Shown: positions 14,930 through 61,830, counted from the stretch's first letter. The stretch: DNA of 64,000 nucleotides from Bacteroidales bacterium (GCA_016928075.1 JAFGLJ010000003.1:4581-68580), one strand, 5' to 3'. The notes: generated by a model not told the origin, from the letters alone. Numbers and translations: made by a program.

Positions 14930-14964
14930 ATTCGCGATAATTAGTCAGATTCGTATTAATCCGC
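14930..14964 (+). repeat. ATTCGCGATAATT-type dispersed module
   Basis: ATTCGCGATAATTAGTCAGATTCGTATTAATCCGC. Close copies occur at 45469-45507, and the core recurs at 28457, 28477, 38430, 55564, 61588 and 61608. Confidence 0.9.
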
Positions 14965-15009
14965 CCCGTGTTCTGAACTTCTCGAAAGACCCGCATTCCA
15001 CCTCTTTCC

Positions 15010-15070
15010 CTGCTCCCTGCTCCCTGCCCCCTGCCCCCTGCCCCCTGCTCCCTGCCCCCTGCTCCCTGCT
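15010..15070 (+). repeat. Tandem heptamer array (CTGCYCC), about 8.7 units
   Basis: Units counted by hand: CTGCTCC x2, CTGCCCC x3, CTGCTCC, CTGCCCC, CTGCTCC, then a partial unit. Confidence 0.95.
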
Positions 15071-15083
15071 TAATCCCGCCTCT

Positions 15084-15104
15084 CATAATTCATAATTCAT
15101 AATT
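15084..15104 (+). repeat. Tandem heptamer array (CATAATT) x3
   Basis: Three perfect units that end 2 nt from the stop codon of the convergent gene 15107..17455. Confidence 0.95.
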
Positions 15105-15106
15105 AA

Positions 15107-17455: not shown

Positions 17456-17564
17456 AACATTTTTAGTGTTTACAGTATAAAGGATAATGAAATATTAAAT
17501 TAATATCATAGAGTAAATTTAAGTGAAAAAATAATAACCGACAGGTTTATATAATGTGTTCTAT

Positions 17565-17600: not shown

Positions 17601-17638
17601 CTTTTAAAACCTAAAACCTGAGAATTGGAAAGAAATTT

Positions 17639-18139: not shown

Positions 18140-18305
18140 GGCATTCTTAATTCTTTCTGGTGTAACAAATAGATAGTCCTTATTTATTTCTTATTCTCAT
18201 CTAAAAGACCCCTAAACTCACAAAGTGTTGCAAAAAGAAATGTTATTTTTCATTAACATTAGAATCCCCCTTTCGAAGAGGATATGAATGAAGAATATCG
18301 ATTGA

Positions 18306-18353
18306 AGATTTAAGATTGCAGATTTAAGATTGCAGATTTAATCCTTAAATCTG
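18306..18353. repeat. 14-mer tandem repeat (AGATTTAAGATTGC x2) ending in a perfect hairpin
   Basis: Two full units, then CAGATTTAA-tcc-TTAAATCTG (9-bp stem). It lies between two minus-strand genes. Confidence 0.9.
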
Positions 18354-19115: not shown

Positions 19116-19125
19116 GGCTGTTTTT

Positions 19126-22408: not shown

Positions 22409-22649
22409 TCCCCCCCTTCAACTGAAGCAAAGCGGACTTTGTCATCCGAAGATTTATCGGAGGATGAGCTCGACGACCAGAAGGAGTCAACGGGTTAGGG
22501 GGATGTTTATATGTTTAACTAGTTTAATAGTTTAGGCGCAATCGCACGTCTCTACGGTTGTTAATAGTTGCAGTCTTCCCTCACAATTTCCTTTTTCCCC
22601 CGGCGTTCACTATGCTCTGCCGGGGTCTTCGCTTCGCTCCGACTTGTAC
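22409..22649 (+). repeat. Composite repeat element that starts at the stop codon
   Basis: It comprises a C-run/TTCAA start, a hairpin (22445-22461), GAGCTCGACGACCAGAAGGAGTCAACGGGTTAGGGGGATGTT, GTTTAA-type units, a GC hairpin plus CTAC, the ~33-nt module (22555-22590) and the 52-nt module (22592-22643). It is colinear with 59211-59394 and 57391-57573. Confidence 0.9.
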
Positions 22650-22840
22650 CTTTTATCTTTTGTCTTTTATCTTTTGTCTTTTGCCTTTTGTCTTTTGTCT
22701 TTTATCTTTTGTCTTTTGCCTTTTGTCTTTTGTCTTTTGCCTTTTGTCTTTTGCCTTTTGTCTTTTGTCTTTTATCTTTTGTCTTTTATCTTTTGTCTTT
22801 TGTCTTTTGTCTTTTATCTTTTATCTTTTCGTTTTATCTT
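22650..22840 (+). repeat. Tandem heptamer array (CTTTTRY), about 27 units
   Basis: 26 complete units counted by hand (variants CTTTTGT, CTTTTAT, CTTTTGC) plus a degenerate end. The array stops 25 nt before ATG 22866. Confidence 0.95.
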
Positions 22841-22865
22841 ACACCTTAATTTTTTACCTATTGTC

Positions 22866-25193
22866 ATGACCAGACATTTCAAATCAAGAGTTGAGAACAT
22901 ATTTTATCAAATGGCAGGCAATTATACCATCTCAACCCGCGTGCCGTACATCGTAGTGGATAATTTTCCAAGGCTCGGCCTCTTTACCGCACTCAGGTTC
23001 CTGGAGTGGGTGTCAGAGAACCCTGAAGGAGTGATTAGCCTGCCTACAGGGAAAACTCCTGAATATTTTATTAAATACACTCGCTACCTGCTGGATAACT
23101 GGGAGAAAAGAGATGTTAGAGATATACTTTCACGCTATGGATTGGAAAGCATGTCCAAACCCGATACCAGGGGACTTCAGTTTGTGCAGATGGATGAATT
23201 TTACCCGATAAACCCGGCACAGCATAACAGCTTCTATAATTACGTTCTTAATTTTTATATTGATGAGCTTGGGCTTGAACGTTCAAACTGCCTTACAATG
23301 AACTCGGTCTCCATTCCCCTGCCCAATGATATGCATTACCGTGAAATATTCCCGGATTTGAGTATAGACCTGAGCCTTCGTTTCAGGGAAGCAAAAACAA
23401 AAGAGGAGGAATTGAAGCAAAAAGCAATATTCATGGTCGACAACTGGTGCTCCGGATATGAACGGCAGGTTCGGGAGAAAGGGGGTATAGGATTCTTCCT
23501 CGGAGGTATAGGCCCCGATGGTCATATCGCCTTCAATACCAGGGGATCGGATCTGTTTTCAACAACCAGGCTCACCGCTACCAATTTTGAAACACAGGCT
23601 GTTGCTGCGGGTGACCTGGGAGGCATAGAAATATCAAGGAAAAGACTGGTAATAACAATAGGACTGGAAACTATTACCTGTAATCCTGATGCGGTGGCCA
23701 TAATTTTTGCAGCAGGTGAGTCAAAAGCGCGTATCATAAAGGATGCCCTTGAACACGATATGAATACTCTATACCCCGCAACTGCATTACAGAGACTTGA
23801 AAATAGCGTATTCTACCTTACAGGGGGAGCAGCCTCAGCCCTGGAAGACAGGGAAGACCTGTACTTTAAGGAAGGCGAATGGACTGATGAAAAAACAGAA
23901 AGAGCAGTGATTAACCTTTGCCAGAAATTGGATAAATACTCACGGCACCTGACACTTGATGACCTTGAAAGTGACAAATACTGCTCCATGATACCGGGTC
24001 TTGGGAATAAAACCGTTAAGGGAGTGGTTGACTCGGTCAGGAAAAAAATAGAACGGGGAATGATTAGGGATGAAAACAAGGTTATATACCATACGGGCCC
24101 TCACCATGATGATATAATGCTTGGAATATTGCCCAAATGTATGCGGCAGGTGCGCTCAGCTACCAATGATGTGCATTTTTGCGTTCTGACTTCAGGTTTT
24201 ACTGCAGTTACCGACCGGTTCATGGAAAGCATCCTGCTGGATACATTCAGGCTGCTGAATGAGGGTGAGATACAAATGATTTACTACGATGACTTTTTTG
24301 ACGGTGGCTATAAAATAAAAAGGTATAAGGATATTTATCATTACCTGAATGCTACGGCACAGCGTAACTATGCAGGTATGCGACGCGGCATATGCCACAG
24401 GGTGGTAAGAGGACTGGTGGAAATATGGGGACTGAAGGACAAGGTACAGATGATAGAAGTTATCAACAATGTAATAAGGACATTACGTAGCTCATATACA
24501 GGAAGTAAAAGCCCGGAACAAATACAGAAGCTGAAGGGAATGGTACGTGAATTTGAGGAGGAACTTGTATGGGCTCATTTTGGTGTACCTATCAGGAATA
24601 TACATCACCTGCGACTGGGTTTCTATAAGGGTGATATTTTTACTGAACAACCTGAGCATGAGCGTGATATAGAGCCGGTGCTGGATCAGCTGCGTACTTT
24701 AAATCCGGATATTATAAGCCTGGCGCTCGATCCGGAAGGAAGCGGACCTGATACACATTATAAAGTTCTCCAGGCAATTGCAGCCGCTGTAAAAGACTGG
24801 GGCAAAGAGAAAGATATTTCAGACCTGCGTGTTATGGGATACAGAAATGTATGGTACCGCTTCCATCCCTCGGAAGTAAATACCATTGTGCCTGTATCAC
24901 TGAATTCAATGGCCGTGCTTGAAAATTCGTTTGAGCAGTGTTATGGAAGCCAGGTACATGCATCATTTCCCAGCTATGAGTACGATGGCAAGTTTAGCGA
25001 TCTTACAAGAAAAATATGGGTTGAACAACTTAAACAGGTGCAACTTGTAACAGGCAAAGCCTTCTTCTACGATAGTGACCAGCCGATGCTCAGGGCAACA
25101 CACGGACTGGTGTATGTTAAAGATATGTCGGCTGATGAGTTTATTACTATGGCCGAAGACCTTGAAAAATTAATGGAAGGCGTCATATTCTGA
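22866..25193 (+). CDS. nagB: Long-form glucosamine-6-phosphate deaminase (NagB domain plus LmbE/PIG-L-like C-terminal domain)
   Basis: An N-terminal 6-phosphogluconolactonase/GlcN6P deaminase-like region (GIGPDGHIAFN) and a later HTGPHHDDIMLG motif (PIG-L/LmbE type). The listed ORF start at 22644 lies inside the heptamer array and is rejected. ATG 22911 is an alternative start. Confidence 0.8.
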   Translation: MTRHFKSRVENIFYQMAGNYTISTRVPYIVVDNFPRLGLFTALRFLEWVSENPEGVISLPTGKTPEYFIKYTRYLLDNWEKRDVRDILSRYGLESMSKPDTRGLQFVQMDEFYPINPAQHNSFYNYVLNFYIDELGLERSNCLTMNSVSIPLPNDMHYREIFPDLSIDLSLRFREAKTKEEELKQKAIFMVDNWCSGYERQVREKGGIGFFLGGIGPDGHIAFNTRGSDLFSTTRLTATNFETQAVAAGDLGGIEISRKRLVITIGLETITCNPDAVAIIFAAGESKARIIKDALEHDMNTLYPATALQRLENSVFYLTGGAASALEDREDLYFKEGEWTDEKTERAVINLCQKLDKYSRHLTLDDLESDKYCSMIPGLGNKTVKGVVDSVRKKIERGMIRDENKVIYHTGPHHDDIMLGILPKCMRQVRSATNDVHFCVLTSGFTAVTDRFMESILLDTFRLLNEGEIQMIYYDDFFDGGYKIKRYKDIYHYLNATAQRNYAGMRRGICHRVVRGLVEIWGLKDKVQMIEVINNVIRTLRSSYTGSKSPEQIQKLKGMVREFEEELVWAHFGVPIRNIHHLRLGFYKGDIFTEQPEHERDIEPVLDQLRTLNPDIISLALDPEGSGPDTHYKVLQAIAAAVKDWGKEKDISDLRVMGYRNVWYRFHPSEVNTIVPVSLNSMAVLENSFEQCYGSQVHASFPSYEYDGKFSDLTRKIWVEQLKQVQLVTGKAFFYDSDQPMLRATHGLVYVKDMSADEFITMAEDLEKLMEGVIF

Positions 25194-26779: not shown

Positions 26780-26780
26780 T

Positions 26781-26950
26781 CCCCCTTTGAAGGGGGTGGT
26801 CCCGGAACTCCGGGACCGGGGGATGTATAAATAAGTTTAAGTGGTTTAAGTGGTTTAAGTGGTTTAATACTAAACTCTTAAACCACTTAAGCATTTCAAC
26901 CCCTCAACCTCCCAATTAAACGATTTAACAATTCAACAACTCAACAACCA
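26781..26950. repeat. Composite repeat element with two hairpins, a 9-mer array and its inverted counterpart
   Basis: CCCCCtttgaaGGGGG (26781-26796); GGTCCCGGaactCCGGGACC (26798-26817); GGGGGATGT; GTTTAAGTG x3 plus a variant (26835-26870). Reverse-orientation copies follow and form an 11-bp perfect stem (26857-67 with 26878-88). Confidence 0.9.
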
Positions 26951-26988
26951 TAATGCAACCTTTGAATGCTACTATTAGTCTTCCAGGC

Positions 26989-28455: not shown

Positions 28456-28456
28456 C

Positions 28457-28491
28457 ATTCGCGATAATTCGCTCAAATTCGCGATAATTCG
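28457..28491 (+). repeat. ATTCGCGATAATTCG module, two copies 20 nt apart
   Basis: Identical 15-mers at 28457-28471 and 28477-28491, starting 2 nt after the stop codon. Confidence 0.95.
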
Positions 28492-28498
28492 TAATTTT

Positions 28499-28540
28499 AT
28501 AACTCATAACTCATAACTCATAACTCATAACTCATAACTC
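28499..28540 (+). repeat. Tandem heptamer array (ATAACTC) x6
   Basis: Six perfect units that end 8 nt before ATG 28549. Confidence 0.95.
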
Positions 28541-28548
28541 CTCTGGCC

Positions 28549-30089: not shown

Positions 30090-30188
30090 GGCTGGGAGCA
30101 GTGAGATGAATGATAAATAATTAATATCGAATAGCGAATGTCGAAGTTCTGATATGTATTCTGCATTCACTCTCGACTCGTTTTTACC

Positions 30189-30275
30189 AACCTTATCAAC
30201 TTTCCAAGGCTTTAGCCTCAGCCTTAGCTTTCCCTGTCCGCCGTAGTCTTGACGGAGGCGGAAACCTCAGCCTTT
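30189..30275 (+). repeat. Composite repeat with an AACCTTATCAACTT module, TAGCCT/CAGCCT hexamers and a TCCGCCGTAGTC hairpin
   Basis: Hexamers lie at 30213-30230. An imperfect hairpin TCCGCCGT..ACGGAGGCGGA spans 30237-30262. The same modules occur at 38037-38082, 51671-51710, 55653-55772 and 61734-61769. Confidence 0.85.
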
Positions 30276-30375
30276 CATTATTTATAATCAATATAAATAT
30301 ATCGATTAACAATAAATATATTTTGTTTTTCAATAAATAAGTTTTACCTTGGTCCCGTAATTAAATCTGATAATT

Positions 30376-31005: not shown

Positions 31006-31016
31006 TATTATAAAGT

Positions 31017-31226
31017 ATGGCTATTATTGTTAATCTCGATGTTATGCTTGCACGGCGAAAGATGAGCCTGACCGAATTGTCCGAAAAAGTTGGGCTCACT
31101 ATGGCCAACCTGTCGGTTCTGAAAACAGGCAAGGCAAAAGCAATCCGTTTCTCAACCCTCGATAGCATTTGCGCAACACTTGACTGCCAGCCGGGCGATA
31201 TTCTCGAATATACACCACATACCTGA
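31017..31226 (+). CDS. Helix-turn-helix transcriptional regulator (XRE/YozG-like)
   Basis: 69 aa, with MSLTELSEKVGLTMANLSVLKTGKAKAIRFSTL matching the short Cro/C1-type HTH family. Confidence 0.8.
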   Translation: MAIIVNLDVMLARRKMSLTELSEKVGLTMANLSVLKTGKAKAIRFSTLDSICATLDCQPGDILEYTPHT

Positions 31227-31283
31227 CCACATGGGGGAGATAAAAAATGAACCGGAACCTGTCTCCCCCTTCCTTTCATCACC

Positions 31284-31321
31284 ATCTGCGTAATCAGCGA
31301 AAATCTGAGTGATCAGCGTTT
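31284..31321 (+). repeat. ATCTGCGTAAT-type ~19-mer, two tandem copies
   Basis: ATCTGCGTAATCAGCGAAA followed by ATCTGAGTGATCAGCGTTT. Related pairs occur at 32515, 41105 and 44575. Confidence 0.85.
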
Positions 31322-31432
31322 ATGATATATCGCATATTTTTTCCCAGCAACAATTTGATTTTTTCTCACTATATTCGCATCTCGAAAAATATTGTATGCT
31401 AATTTTAAGTAAAACAAACAAAAGGAATTATT

Positions 31433-32505: not shown

Positions 32506-32514
32506 TACCCCTTC

Positions 32515-32552
32515 ATCTGCGTAATCAGTGTAAATCTGCGTAAACAGTGTCA
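32515..32552 (+). repeat. ATCTGCGTAAT-type ~19-mer, two tandem copies
   Basis: ATCTGCGTAATCAGTGTAA followed by ATCTGCGTAAACAGTGTCA. Confidence 0.9.
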
Positions 32553-32611
32553 TTTAGCATTCCTTCGCAATGCCCTTTACTAACCTCATCAACTTAATAC
32601 ACATCCCTTCC

Positions 32612-32652
32612 CTGCTCCCTGCCCCCTGCTCCCTGCCCCCTGCCCCCTGCTG
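32612..32652 (+). repeat. Tandem heptamer array (CTGCYCC), about 6 units
   Basis: Counted by hand: CTGCTCC, CTGCCCC, CTGCTCC, CTGCCCC, CTGCCCC, CTGCTGC. Confidence 0.95.
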
Positions 32653-32683
32653 CCGGACAGGTACTTCGTTTCTCTTCGTCTCA

Positions 32684-33316
32684 TCACTCATCACTCATCT
32701 TTCGCATCCCTTTCGCATGATCCAGAATCACAAGCTTCAGGCTGATCATAAGGCCTAAAATGGCAAACTTCTGTACCATATGACGTATGGGCGAACCTAC
32801 AGCATAAAGGAATGCATATGGAAGTACAGTACCCTGTAATAAAAGGTGATAAAGGTACGGCCTGATTTTATTGGTATGTTTAATAAGTTCGTGGATTTGA
32901 ATAACTGTAAGTAACCATAATGAACCTATTACGAGTGCTCCACCAATTGAATGTATGGTATTCAGCACATCGCATGGAACAATGAGAAGAATATACCCGC
33001 CAGCAGCTATTCTGAGTAAAAAATGACTGGTATTATGCTCTGTCAGGTTACTCAATTTGAAACAAATGAGCGCACTTAGTATCATGCCCGTGCCATACAC
33101 AAGGAGAGAAAGTGTATTTGGACTGCCATCCTGGGTGCGGATACGCCCGAAATGACTGATTGCATGCTCCTTGAAAGAAAACGGCTGTCCATAAGTCAAC
33201 ATTCCAAGTATGAATACCAGTATTGTAAGATAAATGAGGTAGCTCGAATACCTGTTCAGCTTATGGTATATACCAAGTACTTCTTCACGGGTATGTAATT
33301 CTGTACGTGCCAGCAT
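32684..33316 (-). CDS. Hypothetical polytopic membrane protein
   Basis: 210 aa with 5-6 TM helices. Its 3' end runs into the CATCACT and TTTCGCAT repeat modules. Confidence 0.55.
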   Translation of the reverse strand: MLARTELHTREEVLGIYHKLNRYSSYLIYLTILVFILGMLTYGQPFSFKEHAISHFGRIRTQDGSPNTLSLLVYGTGMILSALICFKLSNLTEHNTSHFLLRIAAGGYILLIVPCDVLNTIHSIGGALVIGSLWLLTVIQIHELIKHTNKIRPYLYHLLLQGTVLPYAFLYAVGSPIRHMVQKFAILGLMISLKLVILDHAKGMRKMSDE

Positions 33317-35208: not shown

Positions 35209-35622
35209 ATGGTTTATGAGGAACTTCTAAGGTTGAATAATCTCAAAGTAACACCCCAGAGAGTGGCAGTGCTCGAAGCCTTCGATCATCTTAAAACACA
35301 CCCGACGGCTGAAGAGATAAGCGGGTATATAAGACGGAAATATCCCGGTATTGCTACCGGTACCATTTATAAGATACTTGATATCCTGGTTGAAAGAGGC
35401 ATTATAAAAAAAGTCAAAACTGACAGGGATATAATGCGCTATGATTCGGTCAGGGATAACCATCACCATCTTTATGACAGGTATACGGATGATATAACAG
35501 ACTACTTTGATGAAGACCTTGATAATCTGCTGACTGATTATTTCAGGAAAAAAAATATACCGGGATTCAGAATAGACGAGATCAAGCTTCAGATCAGTGG
35601 TAAAAAAACCGGTAAGAAATAG
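35209..35622 (+). CDS. Fur-family transcriptional repressor (PerR-like by context)
   Basis: 137 aa with an N-terminal winged-helix VTPQRVAVLEAF...HPTAEEI motif and an HHHLYD metal-site region. It sits directly upstream of the catalase gene. Confidence 0.8.
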   Translation: MVYEELLRLNNLKVTPQRVAVLEAFDHLKTHPTAEEISGYIRRKYPGIATGTIYKILDILVERGIIKKVKTDRDIMRYDSVRDNHHHLYDRYTDDITDYFDEDLDNLLTDYFRKKNIPGFRIDEIKLQISGKKTGKK

Positions 35623-35656
35623 AATATTCAGCATATGAATTTTAAAACCAAAAACG

Positions 35657-37108
35657 ATGAATAAGAAGAAAAAGCTCACAAATGCCTCTGGAAGGCCATA
35701 TCATGAGAATGAAGATAGTATGACTGCCGGGCGGCGCGGCCCCGTTTTGTTGCAGGATCATTACCTGCATGAGAAACTGGCCCACTTTAACCGTGAACGT
35801 ATACCCGAAAGGGTTGTCCATGCCAAGGGGACTGGTGCCTTCGGCACATTCAAGGTCACGAACGATATCACACGGTACACCAGGGCTAAGTTGTTCAGTA
35901 AGGTTGGTAATGAATGTCGCGTGTTTGTACGATTTTCCACCGTAGGCGGTGAAAAGGGTAGTGCCGACACCGAACGCGACCCCAGGGGCTTTGCAGTGAA
36001 GTTTTATACCGAAGATGGAAACTGGGACCTGGTAGGAAATAATACCCCCGTTTTCTTTATCAAAGACCCGAAGAAATTCCCCGATTTCATACATACCCAG
36101 AAACGCGATCCTAAAACAAACCTGAAAAGCCCGACAATGATATGGGATTACTGGGGGCTTAATCCTGAAAGCCTGCACCAGGTGATGATATTGTTCAGCG
36201 ACCGTGGTACACCGGATGGATACAGGTACATGAACGGCTATGGCAGCCATACCTTCTCCATGGTGAACAGTAAGAATGAAAGGGTATGGGTCAAGTTCCA
36301 TTTCAAGACCATGCAGGGGAACAGGACCCTTACAGGTCCACAGGCTGATGAGATAAGGGGTAAGGACCCTGATTATTCGCAGCGTGACCTGGTCAAAGCT
36401 ATTGAGGCGGGTGATTATCCGAAATGGGCCCTTAAGATACAGGTCATGACTGATGAACAGGCAAGGAACTTCAGGTGGAACCCGTTCGACCTGACAAAAG
36501 TATGGCCACATGGGGAGTACCCACTGATTGATGCCGGCATTATGGAACTGAACGAGATACCTGAAAATTACTTTGCCGACGTTGAACAATCAGCCTTTGC
36601 TCCTTCCCATACGGTTGATGGCATTGGCCTTTCACCTGATAAAATGCTGCAGGGCAGGATATTTGCCTACCCCGATGCCCACCGCTACAGGCTCGGGGCA
36701 AACTATGAGCAGATACCTGTCAACAGGCCAATAAATCCGGTGCATAATTACCAGCGCGACGGGATGATGAGGGTTGATGGTAACCAGGGCGATAATCCTA
36801 ACTACTTCCCCAATAGCTTTGATGATATAGAAGCTGATAAGGCATACAGGGAACCACCGTTGAAACTTGATGGTGATGTGGCCGACTCATTCGACAGGAA
36901 TGAAAACGATGATGATCATTACTCACAACCGGCAGCACTGGTAAATGAAGTAATGACCAAACAGGAAAGGGAAAACACTGTTGCCAATATCATTGCATCA
37001 ATGAAGGGCATATGCGGACCAAAAAAGGGCGAGATAATAAAGAGGCAGCTGGAGCATTTTGAAAAAATGGATCCGGTCTTTGCAAAAGCAGTTGCAAACG
37101 GGCTTTAA
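35657..37108 (+). CDS. Monofunctional haem catalase
   Basis: 483 aa with the RERIPERVVHAKG active-site block and the RIFAYPDAHRYR proximal-ligand block. Confidence 0.95.
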   Translation: MNKKKKLTNASGRPYHENEDSMTAGRRGPVLLQDHYLHEKLAHFNRERIPERVVHAKGTGAFGTFKVTNDITRYTRAKLFSKVGNECRVFVRFSTVGGEKGSADTERDPRGFAVKFYTEDGNWDLVGNNTPVFFIKDPKKFPDFIHTQKRDPKTNLKSPTMIWDYWGLNPESLHQVMILFSDRGTPDGYRYMNGYGSHTFSMVNSKNERVWVKFHFKTMQGNRTLTGPQADEIRGKDPDYSQRDLVKAIEAGDYPKWALKIQVMTDEQARNFRWNPFDLTKVWPHGEYPLIDAGIMELNEIPENYFADVEQSAFAPSHTVDGIGLSPDKMLQGRIFAYPDAHRYRLGANYEQIPVNRPINPVHNYQRDGMMRVDGNQGDNPNYFPNSFDDIEADKAYREPPLKLDGDVADSFDRNENDDDHYSQPAALVNEVMTKQERENTVANIIASMKGICGPKKGEIIKRQLEHFEKMDPVFAKAVANGL

Positions 37109-38365: not shown

Positions 38366-38623
38366 TTGTCTCTTTGTCTCTCAGTCTCTAAGTCACATTA
38401 TCTCTCCGTCACCCCCTGTTTTGTATCGCATTCGCTATAATTCGCATTACTGATTGGTAAACATTATATGCTTCCTGCATGATTGCTCAAGACGCGCTGA
38501 AGCGCGTCTCTACGATTGGGAATCATTGTAATCTTTCTGAAAAATTTTTACCCTTAGCCTATATTTTAATTCCTGCTCCCTGCCCCCTGCTTAAACTCAT
38601 CACTCATAACTCCTCACTCATCT
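38366..38623 (+). repeat. Composite mosaic repeat element
   Basis: Modules in order: GTCTCT-type units; ATTCGCTATAATTCGCATTACTGATTGG (38430-57); degenerate ~33-nt copy (38455-85); hairpin AGACGCGCtgaaGCGCGTCT (38490-38509); CTAC; ~33-nt copy (38514-46); TTAGCCT; CTGCYCC about 2.5 units (38573-90); CATCACT/CATAACT units. It is colinear with 55510-55842 and 61588-61790. Confidence 0.9.
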
Positions 38624-39182: not shown

Positions 39183-39286
39183 GATTTACGATTTTGTTAC
39201 GACTATCCTAAAGATAAACAATAAATGGAACAATGGAATGATTGTATGATTAAAAAAATAGCTTATCCGGTAACTGTCTTAACATT

Positions 39287-39328
39287 CTTCATTCGTAATT
39301 CTTCATTCGTAATTCTTCATTCGTAATT
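39287..39328 (+). repeat. Tandem 14-mer array (CTTCATTCGTAATT) x3
   Basis: Three perfect units covering the stop codon and the last 13 codons or so of gene 39289..41058. Confidence 0.95.
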
Positions 39329-41058: not shown

Positions 41059-41104
41059 GGTTTAATGTTTTACTTGATCCCTAAAGATAAAAAAATATCC
41101 TCCC

Positions 41105-41172
41105 TTCTGCGCAATCTGTGAAAATCTGCGTAATTTGTGTTTTCAACGCATTATTTCGCATCATTTCGCATC
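41105..41172 (+). repeat. ATCTGCGTAAT-type pair plus ATTTCGCATC x2 module
   Basis: TTCTGCGCAATCTGTGAAA then ATCTGCGTAATTTGTGTTT (41105-42), followed by ATTATTTCGCATCATTTCGCATC (41150-72). Here the modules sit in a divergent promoter spacer. Confidence 0.85.
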
Positions 41173-44184: not shown

Positions 44185-44583
44185 ATGGATCTCAACATCA
44201 GAATCATCGGATACATTCGCAACGATTGGGACCATGCCCGGCCCGACCAGGCCGACAGCATAATGCGTTCAGTTTCAACCATTGAAGTGAAGGAAGAATA
44301 TGCCGATGGATTATATAAAATAGAGAAATACCGTGAACTGAATATCCTCTGGTACTTCAACCGCTCCGATGGTTATGAGCTGCAAACCACTACCCGTTCT
44401 GGTGACTACCGGGGTGTCTTTGCCTGCTGCTCACCACGACGGCCCAGCGCCATCGGCCTCACCCGCGTCACCCTTCTCGAACGTAATGGCAATATCCTTA
44501 CAGTCACCGGCCTCGACGCCCTCAACGGCACCCCTGTCCTCGACATCAAACCATCCCTCGACCTGAACCAGACTTCTGTGTAA
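44185..44583 (+). CDS. TsaA/TrmO-like (YaeB, UPF0066) domain protein
   Basis: 132 aa with the GVFACCSPRRPSAIGLT ... GTPVLDIKP blocks typical of the TsaA family. It lies 4 nt after the ABC ATPase gene. Confidence 0.7.
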   Translation: MDLNIRIIGYIRNDWDHARPDQADSIMRSVSTIEVKEEYADGLYKIEKYRELNILWYFNRSDGYELQTTTRSGDYRGVFACCSPRRPSAIGLTRVTLLERNGNILTVTGLDALNGTPVLDIKPSLDLNQTSV

Positions 44584-44618
44584 TCTGTGTAAATCTGCGT
44601 AATCTGCGTCCTTAGCCT
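44575..44618 (+). repeat. TCTGTGTAA/ATCTGCGTAA units plus TTAGCCT
   Basis: TCTGTGTAA x2, ATCTGCGTAA, TCTGCGTCC, TTAGCCT. The stop codon of gene 44185..44583 is the TAA of the first unit. Confidence 0.85.
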
Positions 44619-45468: not shown

Positions 45469-45507
45469 ATTCGCGATACTTAGTCCAAATTCGTGTCAAT
45501 TCGCATC
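45469..45507 (+). repeat. ATTCGCGATA-type dispersed module
   Basis: ATTCGCGATACTTAGTCCAAATTCGTGTCAATTCGCATC, a near copy of 14930-14964. Here it lies in a divergent promoter spacer. Confidence 0.85.
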
Positions 45508-45579
45508 ACCAGTTTAAAATATATTCATTACATTTAATCCTACCGATATAGTAATTGAAACACAAACCAGATTAAAACC

Positions 45580-46542: not shown

Positions 46543-46549
46543 CGAAGGT

Positions 46550-46598
46550 GTTCCGTGTTCCGGGTTCCGTGTTCCGGGTTCCGTGTTCCGTGTTCAAC
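46550..46598 (+). repeat. Tandem heptamer array (GTTCCGK) x7
   Basis: GTTCCGT, GTTCCGG, GTTCCGT, GTTCCGG, GTTCCGT, GTTCCGT, GTTCAAC. A short copy lies at about 55490-55505. Confidence 0.95.
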
Positions 46599-46643
46599 GT
46601 TTTTTCCTGACTTTAATAAACCACTTATACTACTTAAACATTT

Positions 46644-46698
46644 CATTATAAACTCATTATAAACTCATTCTCAACTCATTCTCAACTCATTCTCAACT
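46644..46698 (+). repeat. Tandem 11-mer array (CATTATAAACT x2, CATTCTCAACT x3)
   Basis: Five units counted by hand. Confidence 0.95.
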
Positions 46699-46780: not shown

Positions 46781-48505
46781 ATGAAACCTTTTTCTAATAT
46801 TTTTTCATCATTAATACTCTTTTTTTCCTTTACATCAGCACTCTTCGCCCAGGATAATATCCTGTGGGGCGACGCGGTACCTGATGGATGGAACGGCAAC
46901 TGGACCAATGAGTATCTTACGGCATGCGAGAAATCGGGTTTTACCTATACTGCAAATAACCAGGATGTACTGGAATATTTCGAGATGCTCATGTGGCATA
47001 GCGAGCACGTGTCTGTATTCGATATGTTCATAAGCGACAGGGGCAGGTCATGCCCTGTGATGGTGATGGCCAACCCCAGGGTGCGAAATGCACGCGAAGC
47101 TAAGGAGTCGGGTAAAACAGTTGTGTACCTGCAGGGTGGCATCCACCCCAGCGAATGCGAAGGGAAGGAAGCATTGCTTATGCTGATGAGGGATATACTT
47201 CTCGGCGATAAGAACTACCTGCTCGATAAACTTATTATCCTGGTGTGCCCCAACTTCAATGTCGATGGTAATGAGACACGAAACCTTAGCAGTGGTAAAC
47301 CGGTTATCTCGGGAACAAGGCATAATGCTTATGGATTTGATATCAACAGGGATGCCATCAAGCTCGAGACAACAAATATGATTGGGGCTTACGAAAACGT
47401 ATTTAATACCTGGGATCCCATCCTGGTATATGATACACACCGAATGGGAAGTGTAAGGCATGGCTATCCGATTGTGTATGCAGGATCCAACGTTGCAACT
47501 GCCCATCCCGGACCACGCGACTATGTAACTTATAAAATATTCCCTGAGATAACCGAGCAGGGAAGGAAGAACGGTAAGATAGAGATATTTTATCACTGTG
47601 GACTCTCGAGGGATGAATGGCCGCCGGCAGAGTTTACTCATGACAATGCTATATGGTCAACTGAAGCAAAGTTCATGGTTAGCGGCTACGGGCTGCGCAA
47701 CCGGATGGCTATACTGGTTGAGACAGTGGGCTATGTATCACTGGAGAAAATGATCTACAGCCAATATGTCTTTGCGGACGAGCTCCTGAAATATATCTAT
47801 ATACATGGCAAAGAGATGGAAGAAATATGCAGGAAGACCGATGAGGAAGTGGTGAGGAAGATTAAAGAGGAAGCCCCATCAGGTAACCTTATGAATTATG
47901 TCGAAGGGGAATATGTTTCCGAGGGCAAATACGATATTCTGGGGTATAAAGAACTGAACTTCGGATATATCCCCGGCACCAGCATTATGAACGTTCAGCC
48001 GGTGAGCGAAGATGGCAGCCCTGAAGTGATCCCGGACGTTGAGCTGGTGACTAAACCTGTTGGTACCCGGCAGGCTGCCGTACCAAGGGGGTATTTCATC
48101 CCACGGGAAATGGGTTTCCTGGTAGATAAACTAAGGATCCTCGGGCTGGAAGTTACACAGCTAGAAGAACCTGTTATGGCGTCGGGTGAACAATTCGTTA
48201 TAGATGAGATGATACAGGAACGTACCATGACCTGGCCGGGGTATATCATGACCAGGCTTGAAGGCAACTTCGTAAAGGTGGAGGAAAAATATATCCCCGC
48301 CGATACCTGGCATCTTGATATGGCCCAGCCCCTGGCCAATGTGGCCTTTTATGCCCTGGAACCACAGGTAGGCGACGGCTTCATCGGATGGAACCTCCTG
48401 GAACAGTACTTCATAAACCTCGGGGTCTTTGAACACAGCATCGTTTATCCCGTATTCAAATACTTTAAAACGGTTCCCCCTTTGAAGGGGGAAAATCCCG
48501 ACTGA
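46781..48505 (+). CDS. M14-family zinc carboxypeptidase
   Basis: Signal peptide plus GGIHPSECEG (an HxxE zinc site). The last 9 codons (PPLKGENPD) and the stop lie inside the C5-TTTGAA-G5 repeat element. Confidence 0.7.
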   Translation: MKPFSNIFSSLILFFSFTSALFAQDNILWGDAVPDGWNGNWTNEYLTACEKSGFTYTANNQDVLEYFEMLMWHSEHVSVFDMFISDRGRSCPVMVMANPRVRNAREAKESGKTVVYLQGGIHPSECEGKEALLMLMRDILLGDKNYLLDKLIILVCPNFNVDGNETRNLSSGKPVISGTRHNAYGFDINRDAIKLETTNMIGAYENVFNTWDPILVYDTHRMGSVRHGYPIVYAGSNVATAHPGPRDYVTYKIFPEITEQGRKNGKIEIFYHCGLSRDEWPPAEFTHDNAIWSTEAKFMVSGYGLRNRMAILVETVGYVSLEKMIYSQYVFADELLKYIYIHGKEMEEICRKTDEEVVRKIKEEAPSGNLMNYVEGEYVSEGKYDILGYKELNFGYIPGTSIMNVQPVSEDGSPEVIPDVELVTKPVGTRQAAVPRGYFIPREMGFLVDKLRILGLEVTQLEEPVMASGEQFVIDEMIQERTMTWPGYIMTRLEGNFVKVEEKYIPADTWHLDMAQPLANVAFYALEPQVGDGFIGWNLLEQYFINLGVFEHSIVYPVFKYFKTVPPLKGENPD

Positions 48506-48556
48506 AAAGTCGGGATAGGGGGATGTTAAACAGTTCAATTTAACAATTCCTAAACA
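48476..48556 (+). repeat. Double-hairpin repeat element overlapping a stop codon, followed by TTAAAC/CAA-type units
   Basis: CCCCCtttgaaGGGGG (48476-91); TCCCGACtgaaaaGTCGGGA (48496-48515); TAGGGGGATGTT; then AAACAGTTCAATTTAACAATTCC. Confidence 0.9.
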
Positions 48557-51530: not shown

Positions 51531-51747
51531 GTTTAAGTGGTTTAAATGGTTTAAGAGTTTAGGGTTGAGGTGTCTAGATGTTGAGAGGTTTAGACGTAAA
51601 AATACTATTGTGTCTAAAGGTCATTTCGTCACTTCTTCACTTCTTCACTTCGTCTATGAGTCCCTTTGCTTTGTCCGCCATAGTCCCGAGAACTCTGGAC
51701 GTGGGCGGGCTCCCTGCTCCCTGCTCCCTGCTCCCTGCTCCCTGCCC
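51531..51747 (+). repeat. Composite mosaic repeat element spanning a whole convergent spacer
   Basis: GTTTAAGTG-type 9-mers from the first nt after the stop; CACTTCTT x3 (about 51624-51652); an imperfect TCCGCC hairpin (51671-51710); CTGCTCC about 5 units (51714-51747) that end exactly at the stop codon of the convergent GH127 gene. Confidence 0.9.
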
Positions 51748-55247: not shown

Positions 55248-55652
55248 AATTAATAATCCATTGATTTTTTGAAAGAAAAATTGATTTTTAGTATTGCTAC
55301 TAACGAACCTTTAAGTACACTACTTAACCTTTAGTAGTTTTAAGAGAAGAGGCGTTTTTACTGGTGCTCATAGAACAACAGAACGCATCAGTCACATTCC
55401 AGTTGTTAAGGTTTTACAAATTACAAAATTATATGGAAATAAGCAAGATAGAAAAGACTCACCTCGAACGTTACAAGTTCACCGTTCAATGTTCCGGGTT
55501 CCGTTTTTTACATCACCAATCTCTTATCACTCAGTCTCTACGTCATATCGTGTTTTGGATCCCATTCGCGATAATTCGCATTACTGATTGATAATCCTTA
55601 TATCCGTCCTCTACGGTTGGTAATTATGTAATATTATTGCATTTTTTTCCCT

Positions 55653-55772
55653 TAGCCTCAGCCTCAGCCTTAGCCTCAGCCTCAGCCTCAGCCTTAGCCT
55701 CAGCCTCAGCCTCAGCCTTAGCCTTAGCCTCAGCCTCAGCCTTAGCCTTAGCCTCAGCCTCAGCCTTAGCCT
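55653..55772 (+). repeat. Tandem hexamer array (TAGCCT/CAGCCT) x20
   Basis: 20 uninterrupted units counted by hand (8 TAGCCT, 12 CAGCCT). Confidence 0.95.
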
Positions 55773-55783
55773 ATATTTATTCC

Positions 55784-55842
55784 CTGCCCCCTGCTCCCTG
55801 CCCCCTGCTCCCTGCCCCCTGCTCCCTGCTCCCTGCCCCCTG
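55784..55842 (+). repeat. Tandem heptamer array (CTGCYCC), about 8.4 units
   Basis: Mostly alternating CTGCCCC and CTGCTCC units, counted by hand. Confidence 0.95.
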
Positions 55843-55847
55843 TTTTA

Positions 55848-55883
55848 CCAGCCGAAGTCCCGGATCATCGGGACGAAGGCTGG
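55848..55883 (+). other. Nested GC-rich hairpin
   Basis: CCAGCC-gaa-GTCCCG-gatcat-CGGGAC-gaa-GGCTGG, giving 6+6 bp with symmetric GAA internal loops. Related TCCCGG/CCGGGA hairpins lie at 26798-26817 and 59223-59252. Confidence 0.85.
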
Positions 55884-56032
55884 CCCCCTGCCCTATAAAT
55901 GTCAACATTTAAACAACCCGGTTCAACAGTTAAACAGTTCAACGATTTAACATTTAACTACCCCGGATATAATTTTCCCCCCTTTCCGCGTTATACCTAT
56001 AGTGTTAATCCAAAAATCTGACCTATAGAAAG

Positions 56033-57344: not shown

Positions 57345-57390
57345 GTGCTGCAATTTACCAGGAGGCATCCAATTCCATTAGCGATTATTA

Positions 57391-57636
57391 ATTGGGAATC
57401 ATTGTAATCTTCCTGCACAATTTTTTTAGACGCACTGGTAGCGCGTCTCTACTTTTTCCCCCGGCGTTCGCTATGCTCAGCCGGGGTCTTCGCTTCGCTC
57501 CGACTTTTTCCTTTTTCCCCCGGCGTTCGCTATGCTCAGCCGGGGTCTTCGCTTCGCTCCGACTTTTTCCTTTGTACTTTTTCCTTTGTACTTTTTCCTT
57601 TGTACTTTTTCCTTTTATCTTTTATCTTTTATCTTG
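57391..57636 (+). repeat. Composite repeat cassette forming the 5' region of the GH20 gene
   Basis: ~33-nt module (57391-57423); hairpin AGACGC..GCGTCT (57428-48); CTAC; 52-nt module x2; GTACTTTTTCCTTT x3 (57574-57615); TATCTTT x3 (57616-57636). It is colinear with 22533-22840. Confidence 0.9.
57453..57563 (+). repeat. 52-nt hairpin module in two identical tandem copies (period 59 nt)
   Basis: TTTTTCCCCCGGCGTTCGCTATGCTCAGCCGGGGTCTTCGCTTCGCTCCGAC at 57453-57504 and 57512-57563. A third copy at 22592-22643 differs at 2 positions, both in the loop of the CCCCGGC/GCCGGGG stem. Confidence 0.95.
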
Positions 57637-59209: not shown

Positions 59210-59210
59210 A

Positions 59211-59410
59211 TCCCCCTTTGAACCGAGTCCCGGGAATCCGGGACGAGCTCGGCGACCAGAGGGAGCCAACGGATTAGGGGGATGTTAATGAGTTTAAGTG
59301 GTTTAAGAGTTTAGATGTTGAGGGATTTAGAGGTTTAGACGAATAATATCGCGTTTCTACATTGGCAATTATTGCAACCTTCCTGCACAATTCCCCCTGC
59401 CCCCTGCTCA
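59211..59410 (+). repeat. Composite repeat element that starts 1 nt after the stop codon
   Basis: TCCCCCTTTGAA; nested hairpin CCGAG-TCCCGG..CCGGGA..CTCGG (59223-52); CGACCAGAGGGAGCCAACGGATTAGGGGGATGTT; GTTTAAGTG/GTTGAGG units (59292-59340); degenerate hairpin plus ~33-nt module (59361-94); CTGCCCC about 2 units (59397-59410). Confidence 0.9.
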
Positions 59411-59508
59411 ATGCTTTATTGCAGCTCATCTCTGCAATTCATCCAGCCCCTTGATTTTAATCCATGATTTGCATACATTTATAATCTCACTAACCAATAA
59501 ACCGGCCT

Positions 59509-61557
59509 ATGCCTGACCAATCAGATAACCCCTCTAACTTCTGGCAGGAACTGAAGAGAAGGAGGGTCATTCGTATCATACCCGTATATGCTGCCTCCGC
59601 CTTTGTAATACTAGAGCTGGTGGATATCATTGCTGAACCACTGGGCCTGCCCGACTGGACATTAAACATGGTGCTGGTGCTCCTTGTCATTGGTTTTGTT
59701 ATCTCCGTTATACTATCATGGGTGTATGATTTCACCCCTGAAGGTATTCAGAAGACTGAACCTTTATCAGGAGTCAAAACCGGTAAAAAAGAGAAGGTAT
59801 CCACAGGGTGGAGAATATCAACTTATGTAAGCGTCTTAATAATTATCGCTTTTATCCTTTTTTATGTCCTAAGTAGTATCAAAAAATCATCGGAAATATC
59901 TACCCTGGAGAAATCTATAGCTGTCCTGCCTTTTGAAAACTGGAACAGTGATGAGAAATTTATGCACCTGGGAGATGCCATTACAGATGAGATTATTATG
60001 CAGCTTCAGTATATCCAGGAATTTGACCGCGTGCTTTCCAGGTCATCCACAATGCAATATAAAGATAGGCGTCCTTCCATTACTGAAATAGGAAAAGAGC
60101 TGGGTGTGAATTACATTGTTGAAGGAAGCATCCAGAGACAGGATGACAACGTCAATATACGTGTGCAGGTTCTCAGGACAATAGAAGAAGATCACGTCTG
60201 GGCTGAAGAATACGACGGCAAGTGGTCCGATATCTATACTATACAGAATGATATAGCAAAAAATGTAGCTAAGGAACTAAAGGTTGTCTTAACACAGAGT
60301 GAAATAGAACAGATTGAAAGAACCCCTACTGATAATCTGGAAGCATATAATTATTACCTGCAGGGTAATAACTATTACTGGCGCAGCCAAGAGGAACGTG
60401 ACTGGATCCTGGCAATTAATATGTATCAAAAAGCCATTGAGCTGGATTCCAACTTTGTAGAGGCATATACAAAGCTTGCACGCTCACATATTTCCTTATA
60501 CTGGTACTATTTTGATAGAACCGTAGAACGATTGGATATGGCCAAGGAAGCAATTGATAAAGCATTTGATATAAAACCACATTTTGCCGATGCGCACCAT
60601 GCTTTGGGAGTATATTATTACCATGGCTTCCTGGATTATGATAATGCATTAACACACCTTAAAAAAGCCCTCGAATTAAATCCAAATGATGCTGAATGCA
60701 TTTTTCATATTGCTGGTGTATATAGGCGCATGGGAAACTGGCAAAAAGCAGAGGAAGAATTTCTTAAGGCATTTAAAAGTGATCCGAAAAATTCCAGGGT
60801 GGTCTATAATACAGCAGAGACTTTCTATTTAGTTGGGAAATATTCTGAGGCATTGGATTATGTAAACATGACAATAGAACTGAATCCCGAATATACTGCT
60901 GTATACAATCAAAAGATTAAAATATATCTAAAATGGGAAGGAGAAACCGTGAAAGCCAGGGAAGTTTTTGAAGAGGCTTCTTTACATATTAATCCTTTAT
61001 CAAACCAAGGTCTGGTTCTGAGAACTATTTCAATGGATATATATGATGGCAAATATGAGGATGCAATAAATATTTTAAATAAAATAGATTTTGAAGCCTT
61101 ACAGTCTCAGTTTTATTACTATCCGAAATATTTATACTCAGCTTTTATATATGATTATATGAATGATACCGGGAGAGCCGAACATTATTATAACCTATCG
61201 AGAATCATGTTGGAAGACAAAATTATTTATTTTCCGGATGATTCCCGTTTATACAGTGCTCTTGGTATTTCCTATGCCGGACTTGGACAAAAAGACAAAG
61301 CCATAGAAGCAGGCAAAAGAGCCGTTGAACTTATGCCAATAGAAAAAGAAGCTTATAAAGGCTATTACCACCTGATGGAGCTTGCCCAGATATATGTCAC
61401 GATAGGTGAATATCAAAAGGCCATTAACCAGCTTGATTTCCTCCTCTCTGTCCCCGGCGAACTGTCACCTGCGCTGATACAGCTCGAAACAAGGTGGCAG
61501 CCACTTTGGAACCTGCCCGAATTCAGTGAAATGATAGATAAATATTCCACCGACTAG
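59509..61557 (+). CDS. Membrane-anchored tetratricopeptide-repeat protein
   Basis: 682 aa. The N-terminal RRRVIRI..YAA.AFVILE TM segments, a SIAVLPFENWS region and multiple TPR-like helical repeats make up the domain layout. Confidence 0.7.
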   Translation: MPDQSDNPSNFWQELKRRRVIRIIPVYAASAFVILELVDIIAEPLGLPDWTLNMVLVLLVIGFVISVILSWVYDFTPEGIQKTEPLSGVKTGKKEKVSTGWRISTYVSVLIIIAFILFYVLSSIKKSSEISTLEKSIAVLPFENWNSDEKFMHLGDAITDEIIMQLQYIQEFDRVLSRSSTMQYKDRRPSITEIGKELGVNYIVEGSIQRQDDNVNIRVQVLRTIEEDHVWAEEYDGKWSDIYTIQNDIAKNVAKELKVVLTQSEIEQIERTPTDNLEAYNYYLQGNNYYWRSQEERDWILAINMYQKAIELDSNFVEAYTKLARSHISLYWYYFDRTVERLDMAKEAIDKAFDIKPHFADAHHALGVYYYHGFLDYDNALTHLKKALELNPNDAECIFHIAGVYRRMGNWQKAEEEFLKAFKSDPKNSRVVYNTAETFYLVGKYSEALDYVNMTIELNPEYTAVYNQKIKIYLKWEGETVKAREVFEEASLHINPLSNQGLVLRTISMDIYDGKYEDAINILNKIDFEALQSQFYYYPKYLYSAFIYDYMNDTGRAEHYYNLSRIMLEDKIIYFPDDSRLYSALGISYAGLGQKDKAIEAGKRAVELMPIEKEAYKGYYHLMELAQIYVTIGEYQKAINQLDFLLSVPGELSPALIQLETRWQPLWNLPEFSEMIDKYSTD

Positions 61558-61587
61558 CCACTGGCTCCCAATTCTTGGCTTCATCCC

Positions 61588-61830
61588 ATTCGCGGTAATT
61601 CGTATAAATTCGCGATAATTCGCATTATTGATTGGGAATCGTTTTAATCTTACTGCACAATTTATTGAGGCGCAACGCCTTGCGCCTCTACGGTTGGGAA
61701 TTATTGTAACCTTCCTGCAAAATTACTTATATAAACCTTATAAACTTTATCAACCTTATCAACTTACCTGCCCCCTGCTCCCTGCTCTGTGCCTTTTCTC
61801 TCCGTCTCTAAGTCATTCCGTCTCTAACCT
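61588..61830 (+). repeat. Composite mosaic repeat element
   Basis: ATTCGCG(G/A)TAATTCG x2 (61588, 61608); ~33-nt copy 1 (61631-63); hairpin GAGGCGC-aacgcctt-GCGCCTC (61667-88); TAC; ~33-nt copy 2 (61692-61724); AACCTTATC-type 9-mers x4 (61734-69); CTGCYCC x3 (61768-88); TCCGTCTCTA x2 overlapping the epimerase stop. Confidence 0.9.

Follow-up and report, generated by a model that had tools for sequence, protein, structure and literature searches.

The described systems closest to the repeats reported here are repetitive extragenic palindromes (REPs) and arrays of heptamers and other long simple sequence repeats (SSRs). Classical REPs occur as inverted pairs (REPINs, or bacterial interspersed mosaic elements, BIMEs), typically in more than 100 copies per genome, and the gene for the cognate REP-associated tyrosine transposase (RAYT) is usually itself flanked by REPs, forming a REPtron. 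The heptamer and long-SSR systems comprise the short tandemly repeated repetitive (STRR) sequences of heterocystous cyanobacteria, the TAACTGA repeats of Beggiatoaceae, Cyanobacteria and some Bacteroidetes, and the GGGAATC repeats of Xanthomonas; intergenic arrays of multiple heptamers have already been noted in some Bacteroidetes (PMC4679880). The main REP super-family is defined by an unpaired GTAG, which is cleaved by RAYT, and GTAG REPs were not reported in Bacteroidetes in a 2013 survey (PMC3733652). TnpA_REP subclasses 2.4 and 2.6 occur in Bacteroidetes, subclass 2.6 being flanked by 'atypical secondary structures', and Y1 transposases act on the lagging-strand template (PMC6006769). Here we analyse a 64,000-nt stretch of a Bacteroidales metagenome-assembled genome (MAG; GCA_016928075.1, JAFGLJ010000003.1:4581-68580), hereafter the window, whose intergenic DNA is a mosaic of short tandem arrays, GC hairpins and longer repeats, laid out in a recurrent order and mostly on one strand (+, the strand as presented).

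An ordered vocabulary of intergenic repeats

The working vocabulary was annotated by reading out every spacer of the window, and the mosaic repeats are confirmed as real. Of the 30 spacers that measure 55 nt or more between 14.9 and 61.8 kb, about 19 are composed of recurring modules; the four large spacers of the first 14.9 kb have none. We denote the modules by letters: A, the C5TTTGAA...GGGGGATGT element; B, 9-mers of GTTTAAGTG type; Bk, GTTCCGK; C, GTCTCTAAGTCAC-type units; D, the ATTCGCG 15-mer ATTCGCGATAATTCG; E, a direct repeat of about 33 nt; F, a GC hairpin followed by CTAC; H6, YAGCCT; H9, AACCTTATC; I, CTGCYCC; J, CATAACT; K, pairs of ATCTGCGTAAT-type 19-mers; L, CTTTTKY; M, GTTCAACA-type units; and N, a 59-mer hairpin.

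A first-pass annotation of the window, made from its sequence alone, had listed many of these modules, and most of its entries were recovered. The 15-mer D was found at exactly the eight positions it gave, eight copies at no more than 2 mismatches against 0.08 expected by chance, and 11 copies at 3 mismatches, all of them on the + strand. The paired 19-mers (K, at ~31282/31301, 32513/32532, 41122 and 44572/44591, all +) and the C5-TTTGAA element (A, at 22409, 26780, 48476 and 59210) were likewise present, and all of the listed tandem arrays were returned by Tandem Repeats Finder (TRF), which gave 72 rows of short-period arrays in the window, nearly all in spacers. Copies of the ~33-nt module E were also recovered, but they are far more degenerate than the annotation implied: one copy lies within 3 mismatches and six within 7 (38452, 38514, 57390, 59360, 61630 and 61692), and in those at 22557 and 55611 degeneration is plain to see. 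Two arrays of 14-nt units that lie among minus-strand genes, 18300-18341 (GATTGCAGATTTAA x3) and 39284-39330 (ATTCTTCATTCGTA x3.4), are not clearly members of the vocabulary; the first of them resembles the reverse complement of K.

Pairwise module order, assessed on module strings curated by hand from the window spacers, was consistent in 72 of 77 co-occurrences, where shuffled strings gave a mean of 0.73 +/- 0.05 and none of 20,000 did as well. The three long composites (38366-38623, 55480-55975 and 61588-61830) are colinear, as had been proposed, and share more than their modules. The unique junction ATTCGCATTAYTGATTG is common to them (38439, 55573, 61617), and the junctions TTTTT(A)CCCTTAGCCT and TAGCCTATATTT..ATTCCTGC are common to 38366 and 55480. 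Since these junction sequences are unique, the long composites descend from a common composite, and the conservation of the junctions between spacers that are not homologous points to copying as blocks.

Strand preference is equally marked. Specific modules score 0 on the minus strand of the window, and when the TRF arrays were compared without bias, 22 related pairs shared their orientation and none was opposed. Exceptions within the window are an inverted I/D-like block at 30090-30150 and arrays of the B and M types, which sometimes form inverted pairs (26835/26875). The single orientation claimed by the annotation therefore stands as a strong rule, not an absolute one. Taken together, the order test, the strand counts and the composites support the modular, ordered and strand-biased intergenic system that it had proposed, and at the loci available neither order nor orientation is random.

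The window is ordinary chromosomal DNA, with an nqr operon, holA, catalase, a B12-type ABC transporter, GH20, GH127 and BNR proteins among its ~51 genes, none of which is a transposase or other mobile-element gene. No inverted repeats flank the composites, as would be expected of miniature inverted-repeat transposable elements (MITEs), so that the annotated absence of terminal inverted repeats and transposase was borne out, and no target duplication was seen around the composites. A search of the whole window against Rfam 15 gave no family match (two sub-threshold chance matches only), the plasmid and phage similarity searches matched nothing, and the tRNA scan found none. Scans of viral contigs with four module patterns returned only chance or unrelated matches, giving no link to phages.

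The hairpin F brings this system close to the REPs. Its consensus is tAGACGCGC-N4-7-GCGCGTCT-CTAC, that is, AGACGCGC-loop-GCGCGTCT-CTAC, with a stem of 8 bp and a loop of 4-7 nt. Among 13 copies from five organisms, 87.5% of the cells in the stem are paired and four of the eight pairs show compensatory changes, a result matched by none of 500 shuffles. Directly 3' of the stem on the + strand stands an invariant CTAC, and the next outward bases are unpaired. Read on the minus strand, F is therefore GTAG 5' of a palindrome, which is the REP tag. REPs are imperfect palindromes of 20-40 nt that can form a stem-loop, with an unpaired GTAG at one end, and F agrees with them in both respects. About six copies lie in 47 kb of the window, and others are present in related loci (L004, L226) and in two metagenome contigs (L128, L083). 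Together with E, the hairpin forms a tandem repeat of ~61-66 nt, and the order test and colinear composites place palindromes and other motifs in a defined order, as in BIME mosaics. The annotation had rightly chosen REP/BIME and STRR elements as analogues, and did not recognise the hairpin with CTAC as the GTAG tag; because that hairpin reads as GTAG plus palindrome on the other strand, the system is tied to REPs by more than a loose resemblance.

Distribution and turnover among relatives

Over 5,305 nt that span two composites, the window is matched at 100% identity by contig L001 of an independent Logan assembly (SRR13394437). An NCBI MAG with the label 'Bacteroidales bacterium' encodes a GH20 protein 100% identical to that of the window. 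The nearest named relatives are Prolixibacteraceae (Mariniphaga, Draconibacterium and Maribellus, 67-69% identity in GH20), and the exact 20-mer ATTCGCGATAATTCGCATTA had no matches in GTDB representative genomes, where the species is not represented. Syntenic loci of related MAGs were recovered via a conserved PP-loop protein. Those with coding DNA 75-84% identical to the window (L002, L003, L004, L226, L219-L221) carry the same vocabulary in the same order and on the same strand, a further six (L007, L008, L222-L225) carry K and J only, and in the loci of more distant relatives (L005, L006, L009, L010, L229) modules are absent. K is the most widely conserved module, and it stands at orthologous sites even in module-poor L007, L008 and L222. 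The window and L002-L004 contain 4.8-7.3 arrays per 10 kb, most other loci ~1, and L005, L010 and L227 none. L227 is the sampled locus of Mariniphaga anaerophila, the only cultured relative included, and it had no modules.

Two metagenome contigs without genes in common with the window (L128/L274 and L083) also carry modules. L128 shares only repeats with the window and at 1319-1602 reads B-F'-E-F-E-H9-I; the modules of L083 lie on its other strand. These contigs came from a metagenome scan with CTGCYCC x3, a pattern common in unrelated high-GC organisms, in which 2 of 120 loci (L083 and L128) belonged to the lineage. The L128 composite is bracketed by inverted CTGCYCC arrays (GGGRGCAG units at 1324-1350 on the left, CTGCYCC at 1560-1585 on the right), the only arrangement seen that resembles terminal inverted repeats. 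From the syntenic relatives, the module-free distant loci and the non-syntenic L128 and L083, it follows that the repeat system is dispersed and clade-restricted and is not a local duplication; its modules are not confined to the window. The annotation's remark that no such system was known in Bacteroidota holds for the mosaic grammar only, since heptamer arrays and REP-type Y1 proteins are known there.

Several local features were noted in these loci. In L229 a 25-nt tandem array (GGCCCGGCTAAGGGGCTAAAATTCC x5.5, 4801-4937) follows a TrmO-like gene, where the lineage has K, and this site seems prone to host repeats of unrelated sequence. An IS4-type DDE transposase gene, unrelated to the modules, is inserted downstream of GH20 in L220 (10070-11365). 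The TPR gene at 59509-61557 of the window is present in two copies in L002 (11031-13204 and 18385-20496), one of them directly after the PP-loop gene, which indicates local rearrangement in this neighbourhood.

Orthologous spacers retain some modules and replace others. A GTTCCG array follows the same orthologous stop codon in four species (window, L003, L004 and L007). After the TPR gene (61558) the window reads D-D-E-F-E-H9-I-C and L226 (4360-4790) reads E-F-E-F-E-H9-I-C-J, the first hairpin being recognisably orthologous, and the middle section of the 51531 spacer differs in L004 (14230-14640), which has E-F-E-H9-I there. Between strains 99.9% identical over 19 kb, the sole multi-nucleotide indel is one 7-nt CCCTGTG unit. 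YAGCCT occurs at homologous composite positions in 1 copy (38366) and in 20 (55480). As in STRR sequences, intergenic head-to-tail units of 5-11 nt are over-represented and their copy number is unstable.

A larger polymorphism separates contigs from four samples that are otherwise identical: L274 and L277 have a 78-nt block that L275 and L278 lack (L274 5934-6021 against L275 6012-6021). It consists of a 68-nt double hairpin and the 10-nt direct repeat CCTTAGCCTC, an H6 unit, and it folds strongly as single-stranded DNA (ssDNA; z = -6.4). Part of the block recurs at L083 204-233 and L002 15228-15257, and a hairpin resembling it, flanked by CCTCAGCCTT units, lies at 30215-30285 of the window. 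With a 10-nt direct repeat bounding this strain-polymorphic block, the annotation's statement that there are no target-site duplications cannot be relied on for the hairpin sub-modules.

Array units also grade into hairpin arms (59290-59345, 38366-38395 and 55525-55545). GTTTAAGTG passes via GTTTAGAGG to GTTTAGACG(CGC), the 5' arm of F, and GTTTAGAGG grades into GTTTAGACGCGC; GTCTCTAAGTC and GTCTCTACGTC resemble the 3' arm of F with its CTAC, and GTCTCTAAGTC resembles GCGTCTCTAC. Arrays may have been seeded from hairpin halves. The mosaic spacers are listed in Table 1.

Table 1. Mosaic spacers of the window, with positions counted from its first nucleotide and module letters as in the text
Feature	Position	Strand	Composition
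Convergent spacer	14927-15106	+	D 14930-14944; I, CTGCYCC x9, 15007-15070; J, CATAATT x3, 15083-15104
Composite A-B-F-E-N-L	22409-22835	+	A, C7..GGGGGATGT element, 22409-22506
Same composite, inner part	within 22409-22835	+	degenerate hairpin and CTAC ~22530-22556; E ~22557-22589; N, 59-mer-type hairpin, 22590-22643
Same composite, L array	22644-22835	+	CTTTTGT/CTTTTAT, ~26 copies, ending 32 nt before ATG 22867
A-led spacer	26780-26952	+	A (C5TTTGAAG5, second hairpin, GGGGGATGT) 26780-26826
Same spacer, rest	within 26780-26952		GTTTAAGTG x3.7 26835-26867; inverted partial copy 26875-26883; AACAACTC-type units
D-J spacer	28456-28548	+	D x2 28457-28491; J, CATAACT x6, 28499-28540, directly after
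Mixed spacer	30090-30285	.	30090-30150 appears inverted: GGGAGCAG and CGAAT-type units, the reverse complement of D
Same spacer, forward part	within 30090-30285		AACCTTATC; YAGCCT units; GTCCGCCGTAGTC...GGAGGCGGA hairpin flanked by CCTCAGCCTT units; spacer compared with L274 12416-12620
K pair	31282-31320	+	ATCTGCGTAATCAGCGAAAATCTGAGTGATC; further pairs 32513-32545, 41103-41135, 44572-44606
K-I spacer	32506-32700	+	K pair; AACCTCATCAAC unit; I array 32609-32651; CTCATCA units 32680-32699
Full composite C-D-E-F-E-H6(1 copy)-I-J	38366-38623	+	between two minus-strand genes; F hairpin and CTAC 38489-38513
D-type units	45469-45510	+	ATTCGCGATACTTAG ... ATTCGTGTCAATTCGCATCACC; divergent spacer
GTTCCGK x7, then 11-mer array	46548-46698	+	GTTCCGK right after stop codon, 46548-46595; CTCATTCTCAA 46643-46698
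A element	48476-48526	+	overlaps end of ORF 46781-48505
Array spacer	51531-51747	+	GTTTAAGTG-type 51531-51555; CACTTCTT 51621-51651; GTCCGCC...GGGCGGG hairpin; CTCCCTG x5 51709-51745
Longest composite	55480-55975	+	Bk, C, D, degenerate E-CTAC-E; YAGCCT x20 55650-55772; CTGCYCC x9 55782-55842; divergent spacer
Same composite, end	within 55480-55975	+	GC hairpin 55849-55885; GTTCAACA-type units
E-F-N-L spacer	57390-57635	+	E; F hairpin and CTAC 57427-57452; 59-mer x2 57452-57573
Same spacer, end	within 57390-57635	+	CTTTTTC/CTTTGTA/CTTTTAT arrays, last unit 24 nt before GH20 start 57659
A-B-F-E spacer	59210-59407	+	A 59210-59285; B-type 9-mers grading into hairpin arm; degenerate hairpin and CTAC 59334-59360
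Same spacer, end	within 59210-59407	+	E 59360-59392; CCCCCTG x2
Composite D-D-E-F-E-H9-I-C	61588-61830	+	F hairpin and CTAC 61666-61691; AACCTTATC array; CTGCYCC; GTCTCTAAGTCA units

Possible origins of the mosaic

The reading we favour, tentatively, is that these are lineage-specific, non-coding, REP/BIME-like mosaic repeats of a narrow, uncultured clade of marine Bacteroidales akin to Prolixibacteraceae, formed by gain and loss of hairpins, by slippage and by the copying of composites. Small GC palindromes (the GTAG-tagged F, the GTCCGCC-type hairpins, the C5/G5 element A and the 59-mer) would be gained and lost as units, and the 6-14-nt arrays beside them would expand, contract and drift by replication slippage, some arrays apparently having started from a hairpin arm or from the duplication of a flanking unit. 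Whole composites of ~200-300 bp would be copied between spacers with their internal order and orientation preserved, and would afterwards pass on by vertical descent, with remodelling in place. From the GTAG tag, the strand bias and the absence of terminal inverted repeats we infer that the hairpins may be processed as ssDNA by a RAYT-like Y1 (HUH) enzyme whose gene lies in another part of the genome, in conjunction with the replication fork; such coupling to the fork would possibly explain the strand bias.

Several observations weigh against this reading. The F hairpins are all in one orientation, single or head-to-tail with a period of ~61-66 nt and separated by E, and they form none of the inverted or alternating pairs that characterise BIMEs and REPINs. 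The window and 2.2 Mb of fetched loci were searched for a Y1/RAYT gene and yielded none, and tblastn with E. coli RayT and IS200 TnpA gave no match in the fetched loci. The strand rule is not universal, because on the L128/L274 contig A, D, E/F and H9 lie on one strand and the simple arrays (CTGCYCC, single YAGCCT units and a GGAATGAT-type array) on the other. A link to replication finds little in base composition: third-position GC (GC3) skew differs only weakly, and not significantly, between + and minus-strand genes of the window (p = 0.20), and gene-strand bias points opposite to it. In L128 the GC3 skew is significant (p = 0.04), in the same direction as in the window. Leading-strand assignment from these two signals was given up, as they are weak and contradictory. 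Finally, the 78-nt polymorphism could be either an insertion or a deletion between the flanking direct repeats.

The main rival dispenses with an enzyme altogether. Here the spacers would be microsatellite-like DNA arising in place from slippage at hairpins. Arrays common to several spacers would serve as sites of ectopic gene conversion or template switching, and the spacers would be homogenised in this way, adjoining modules being copied along with their order and orientation unchanged. This is a course of events we think unlikely, if by no means far-fetched. Change in unit number is the commonest strain-level event, array units do grade into hairpin arms, and neither the window nor the fetched loci yielded a Y1 transposase; the repeats bounding the 78-nt polymorphism would support deletion or conversion. 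What slippage and conversion leave unexplained is the invariant unpaired CTAC/GTAG beside a freely co-varying stem, the arrival of the first seeds in unrelated spacers in one orientation, and the same composites at non-syntenic loci of other organisms.

Regulatory and chromosome-architecture roles are less likely as primary explanations. If the repeats were selected cis signals, A, D, K and GTTCCG would be transcript-end or RNA-stability elements, N-L would be translation-tuning leaders, and module order would follow from position between stop and start. Bacteroidota translate without a Shine-Dalgarno sequence. Modules do start 0-10 nt after the stop codons of + genes at eight sites (14927, 22409, 26780, 28456, 32506, 46543, 51531 and 59210), and between 14.9 and 61.8 kb they are found in 9 of 12 (+,+) spacers and all five convergent ones, as against 2 of 8 (-,-) spacers; of the divergent spacers 3 of 5 have them. 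The L arrays stop 24-32 nt short of the ATG in two genes that are unrelated, a position conserved in L226, and the N-L block as a whole (22590-22835 and 57452-57635) precedes both genes and also the GH20 ortholog in L226 (350-475), so that it is a candidate for a portable leader or a cassette near promoters. Roles of the transcript-end or leader type have been proposed for both REPs and heptamer arrays (PMC3733652; PMC4679880). All this notwithstanding, full composites lie antisense between minus genes (38366-38623) and in a divergent spacer (55480-55975), minus-strand genes lack minus-oriented copies, orthologous spacers swap module sets freely, close relatives do without modules, and Rfam offers no match. 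As the primary explanation cis signalling thus appears improbable. The positions near stops and starts suggest secondary roles at transcript ends and in leaders, and any cellular role is probably of this secondary kind: structure at transcript ends after stops and pyrimidine-rich leaders before starts.

The repeats also affect the genes they adjoin. The A element at 48476-48526 supplies the last ~10 codons and the TGA stop of an M14 carboxypeptidase-like open reading frame (ORF; 46781-48505) and has therefore remodelled the C-terminus of the protein. A mechanically called ORF, 22644-25193, begins with TTG inside the ~26-copy CTTTTGT array; its true start is likely the ATG at 22867, and automatic gene callers may mis-annotate array-encoded N-termini at 22644-22869. 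Two further points of gene calling were noted: a short HTH/XRE-like ORF (~70 aa, 31017-31227) lies inside what had passed for a 427-nt spacer (31006-31432), and the Fur-family gene is the + ORF 35209-35622 and not the longer antisense ORF 35227-35679.

A stronger form of the enzymatic reading, to which we would give only a slim chance, is active, strand-specific copying through ssDNA by a RAYT-like or new system. Hairpins would insert at and excise from short units such as YAGCCT, the duplicated footprints would become the arrays, and coupling to the fork would fix order and strand across chromosome arms. If true, bacteria would have a hitherto undescribed way of generating ordered microsatellite-hairpin grammars.

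More doubtful still are strand-specific protein-binding or structural sites for chromosome organisation, similar to FtsK-orienting polar sequences (KOPS) or architecture imparting sequences (AIMS), or a G-quadruplex opposite CTGCYCC. The strand bias does span 47 kb, and within the complement of CTGCCCC stands GGGCAGGG, in agreement with the KOPS consensus of E. coli, GGGNAGGG; outside the arrays, however, GGGCAGGG is not skewed likewise (5 plus, 2 minus), which leaves the KOPS idea unsupported there. On the minus strand the CTGCYCC complement (GGGGCAGGGAGCAGG...) has G-run spacing of the G-quadruplex type (15007-15070, 32609-32651 and 55782-55842), and Xanthomonas and Nostoc are known to have heptamer arrays rich in G (PMC4692102). 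Against such sites, most modules are AT-rich, unlike these motifs, the CTGCYCC units of L274 oppose its other modules, and some relatives have no modules at all.

An artefact of assembly or binning, or else a duplication local to one contig, is a natural suspicion with repeats that are hard to assemble in a MAG, and it is refuted by the identical independent Logan assembly, by the same modules in MAGs and metagenome contigs of other projects and samples, and by the occurrence of each allele of the 78-nt polymorphism in two samples. Integron, clustered regularly interspaced short palindromic repeat (CRISPR) and MITE readings were ruled out by anatomy (syntenic housekeeping genes, no spacers and no terminal inverted repeats).

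Relation to described repeat systems

The intergenic DNA of this environmental Bacteroidales lineage can be an ordered, fast-evolving mosaic and not plain spacer, with consequences for gene calling (an element-supplied stop, and array ORFs mis-called as starts), for MAG assembly and for strain typing. The strain polymorphisms make the spread of the repeats and their retention on one strand testable.

Like the attC arrays of integrons (for example the VCRs of Vibrio), the modules are structured repeats between genes that keep one orientation whatever the direction of the genes. Unlike in integrons, the genes on either side are not cassettes but large housekeeping and glycoside-hydrolase genes in synteny, there is no R/L core organisation of attC and no integrase, and the spacers vary here while the genes stay put. 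With MITEs and other small nested dispersed repeats, such as those of cyanobacteria, the modules share small size, a non-autonomous and dispersed nature, and a habit of lying nested in or beside other repeats; one sub-module also shows a presence/absence polymorphism bounded by a 10-nt direct repeat. The composites differ from MITEs in lacking terminal inverted repeats, a consistent target duplication and an associated DDE transposase, and their ordered multi-module make-up is not a feature of MITEs.

The heptamer and long-SSR systems resemble the present one in their intergenic arrays of 7-nt units (here also of 6, 8 and 9 nt), with several unit types per spacer, in copy numbers that differ between relatives, and in the placement of some arrays just upstream of starts. 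The arrays described here differ in their unit sequences, in standing in a fixed order with hairpins and longer repeats, and in keeping one orientation. The Xanthomonas arrays occur on both strands (84 plus, 102 minus; PMC4692102).

The likeness to the REP/BIME elements of Proteobacteria, with their RAYT/TnpA_REP proteins, goes further. Both systems consist of short GC-rich extragenic palindromes with an invariant unpaired GTAG at the foot of the stem, locally dense, mostly downstream of genes and set in a fixed mosaic order with other motifs; both lack terminal inverted repeats and coding capacity, and both form species- or clade-specific families. They differ in that REPs and BIMEs form alternating or inverted pairs, whereas the hairpins here are single or head-to-tail, and in that the mosaic here is dominated by arrays of 6-14-nt units, which BIMEs lack, and has a strong bias to one strand; the host is one of the Bacteroidales, and a cognate RAYT was not found in the window or fetched loci. 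The components are thus known (REP-type hairpins, BIME-type mosaics and heptamer arrays; PMC4679880, PMC4692102), and what is new is their combination into an ordered one-strand grammar, the head-to-tail hairpins and the host lineage. This extends GTAG-tagged, REP-like palindromes to a phylum for which the 2013 survey had no such report (PMC3733652), and it connects REP/BIME mosaics with heptamer arrays, which have so far been described separately.

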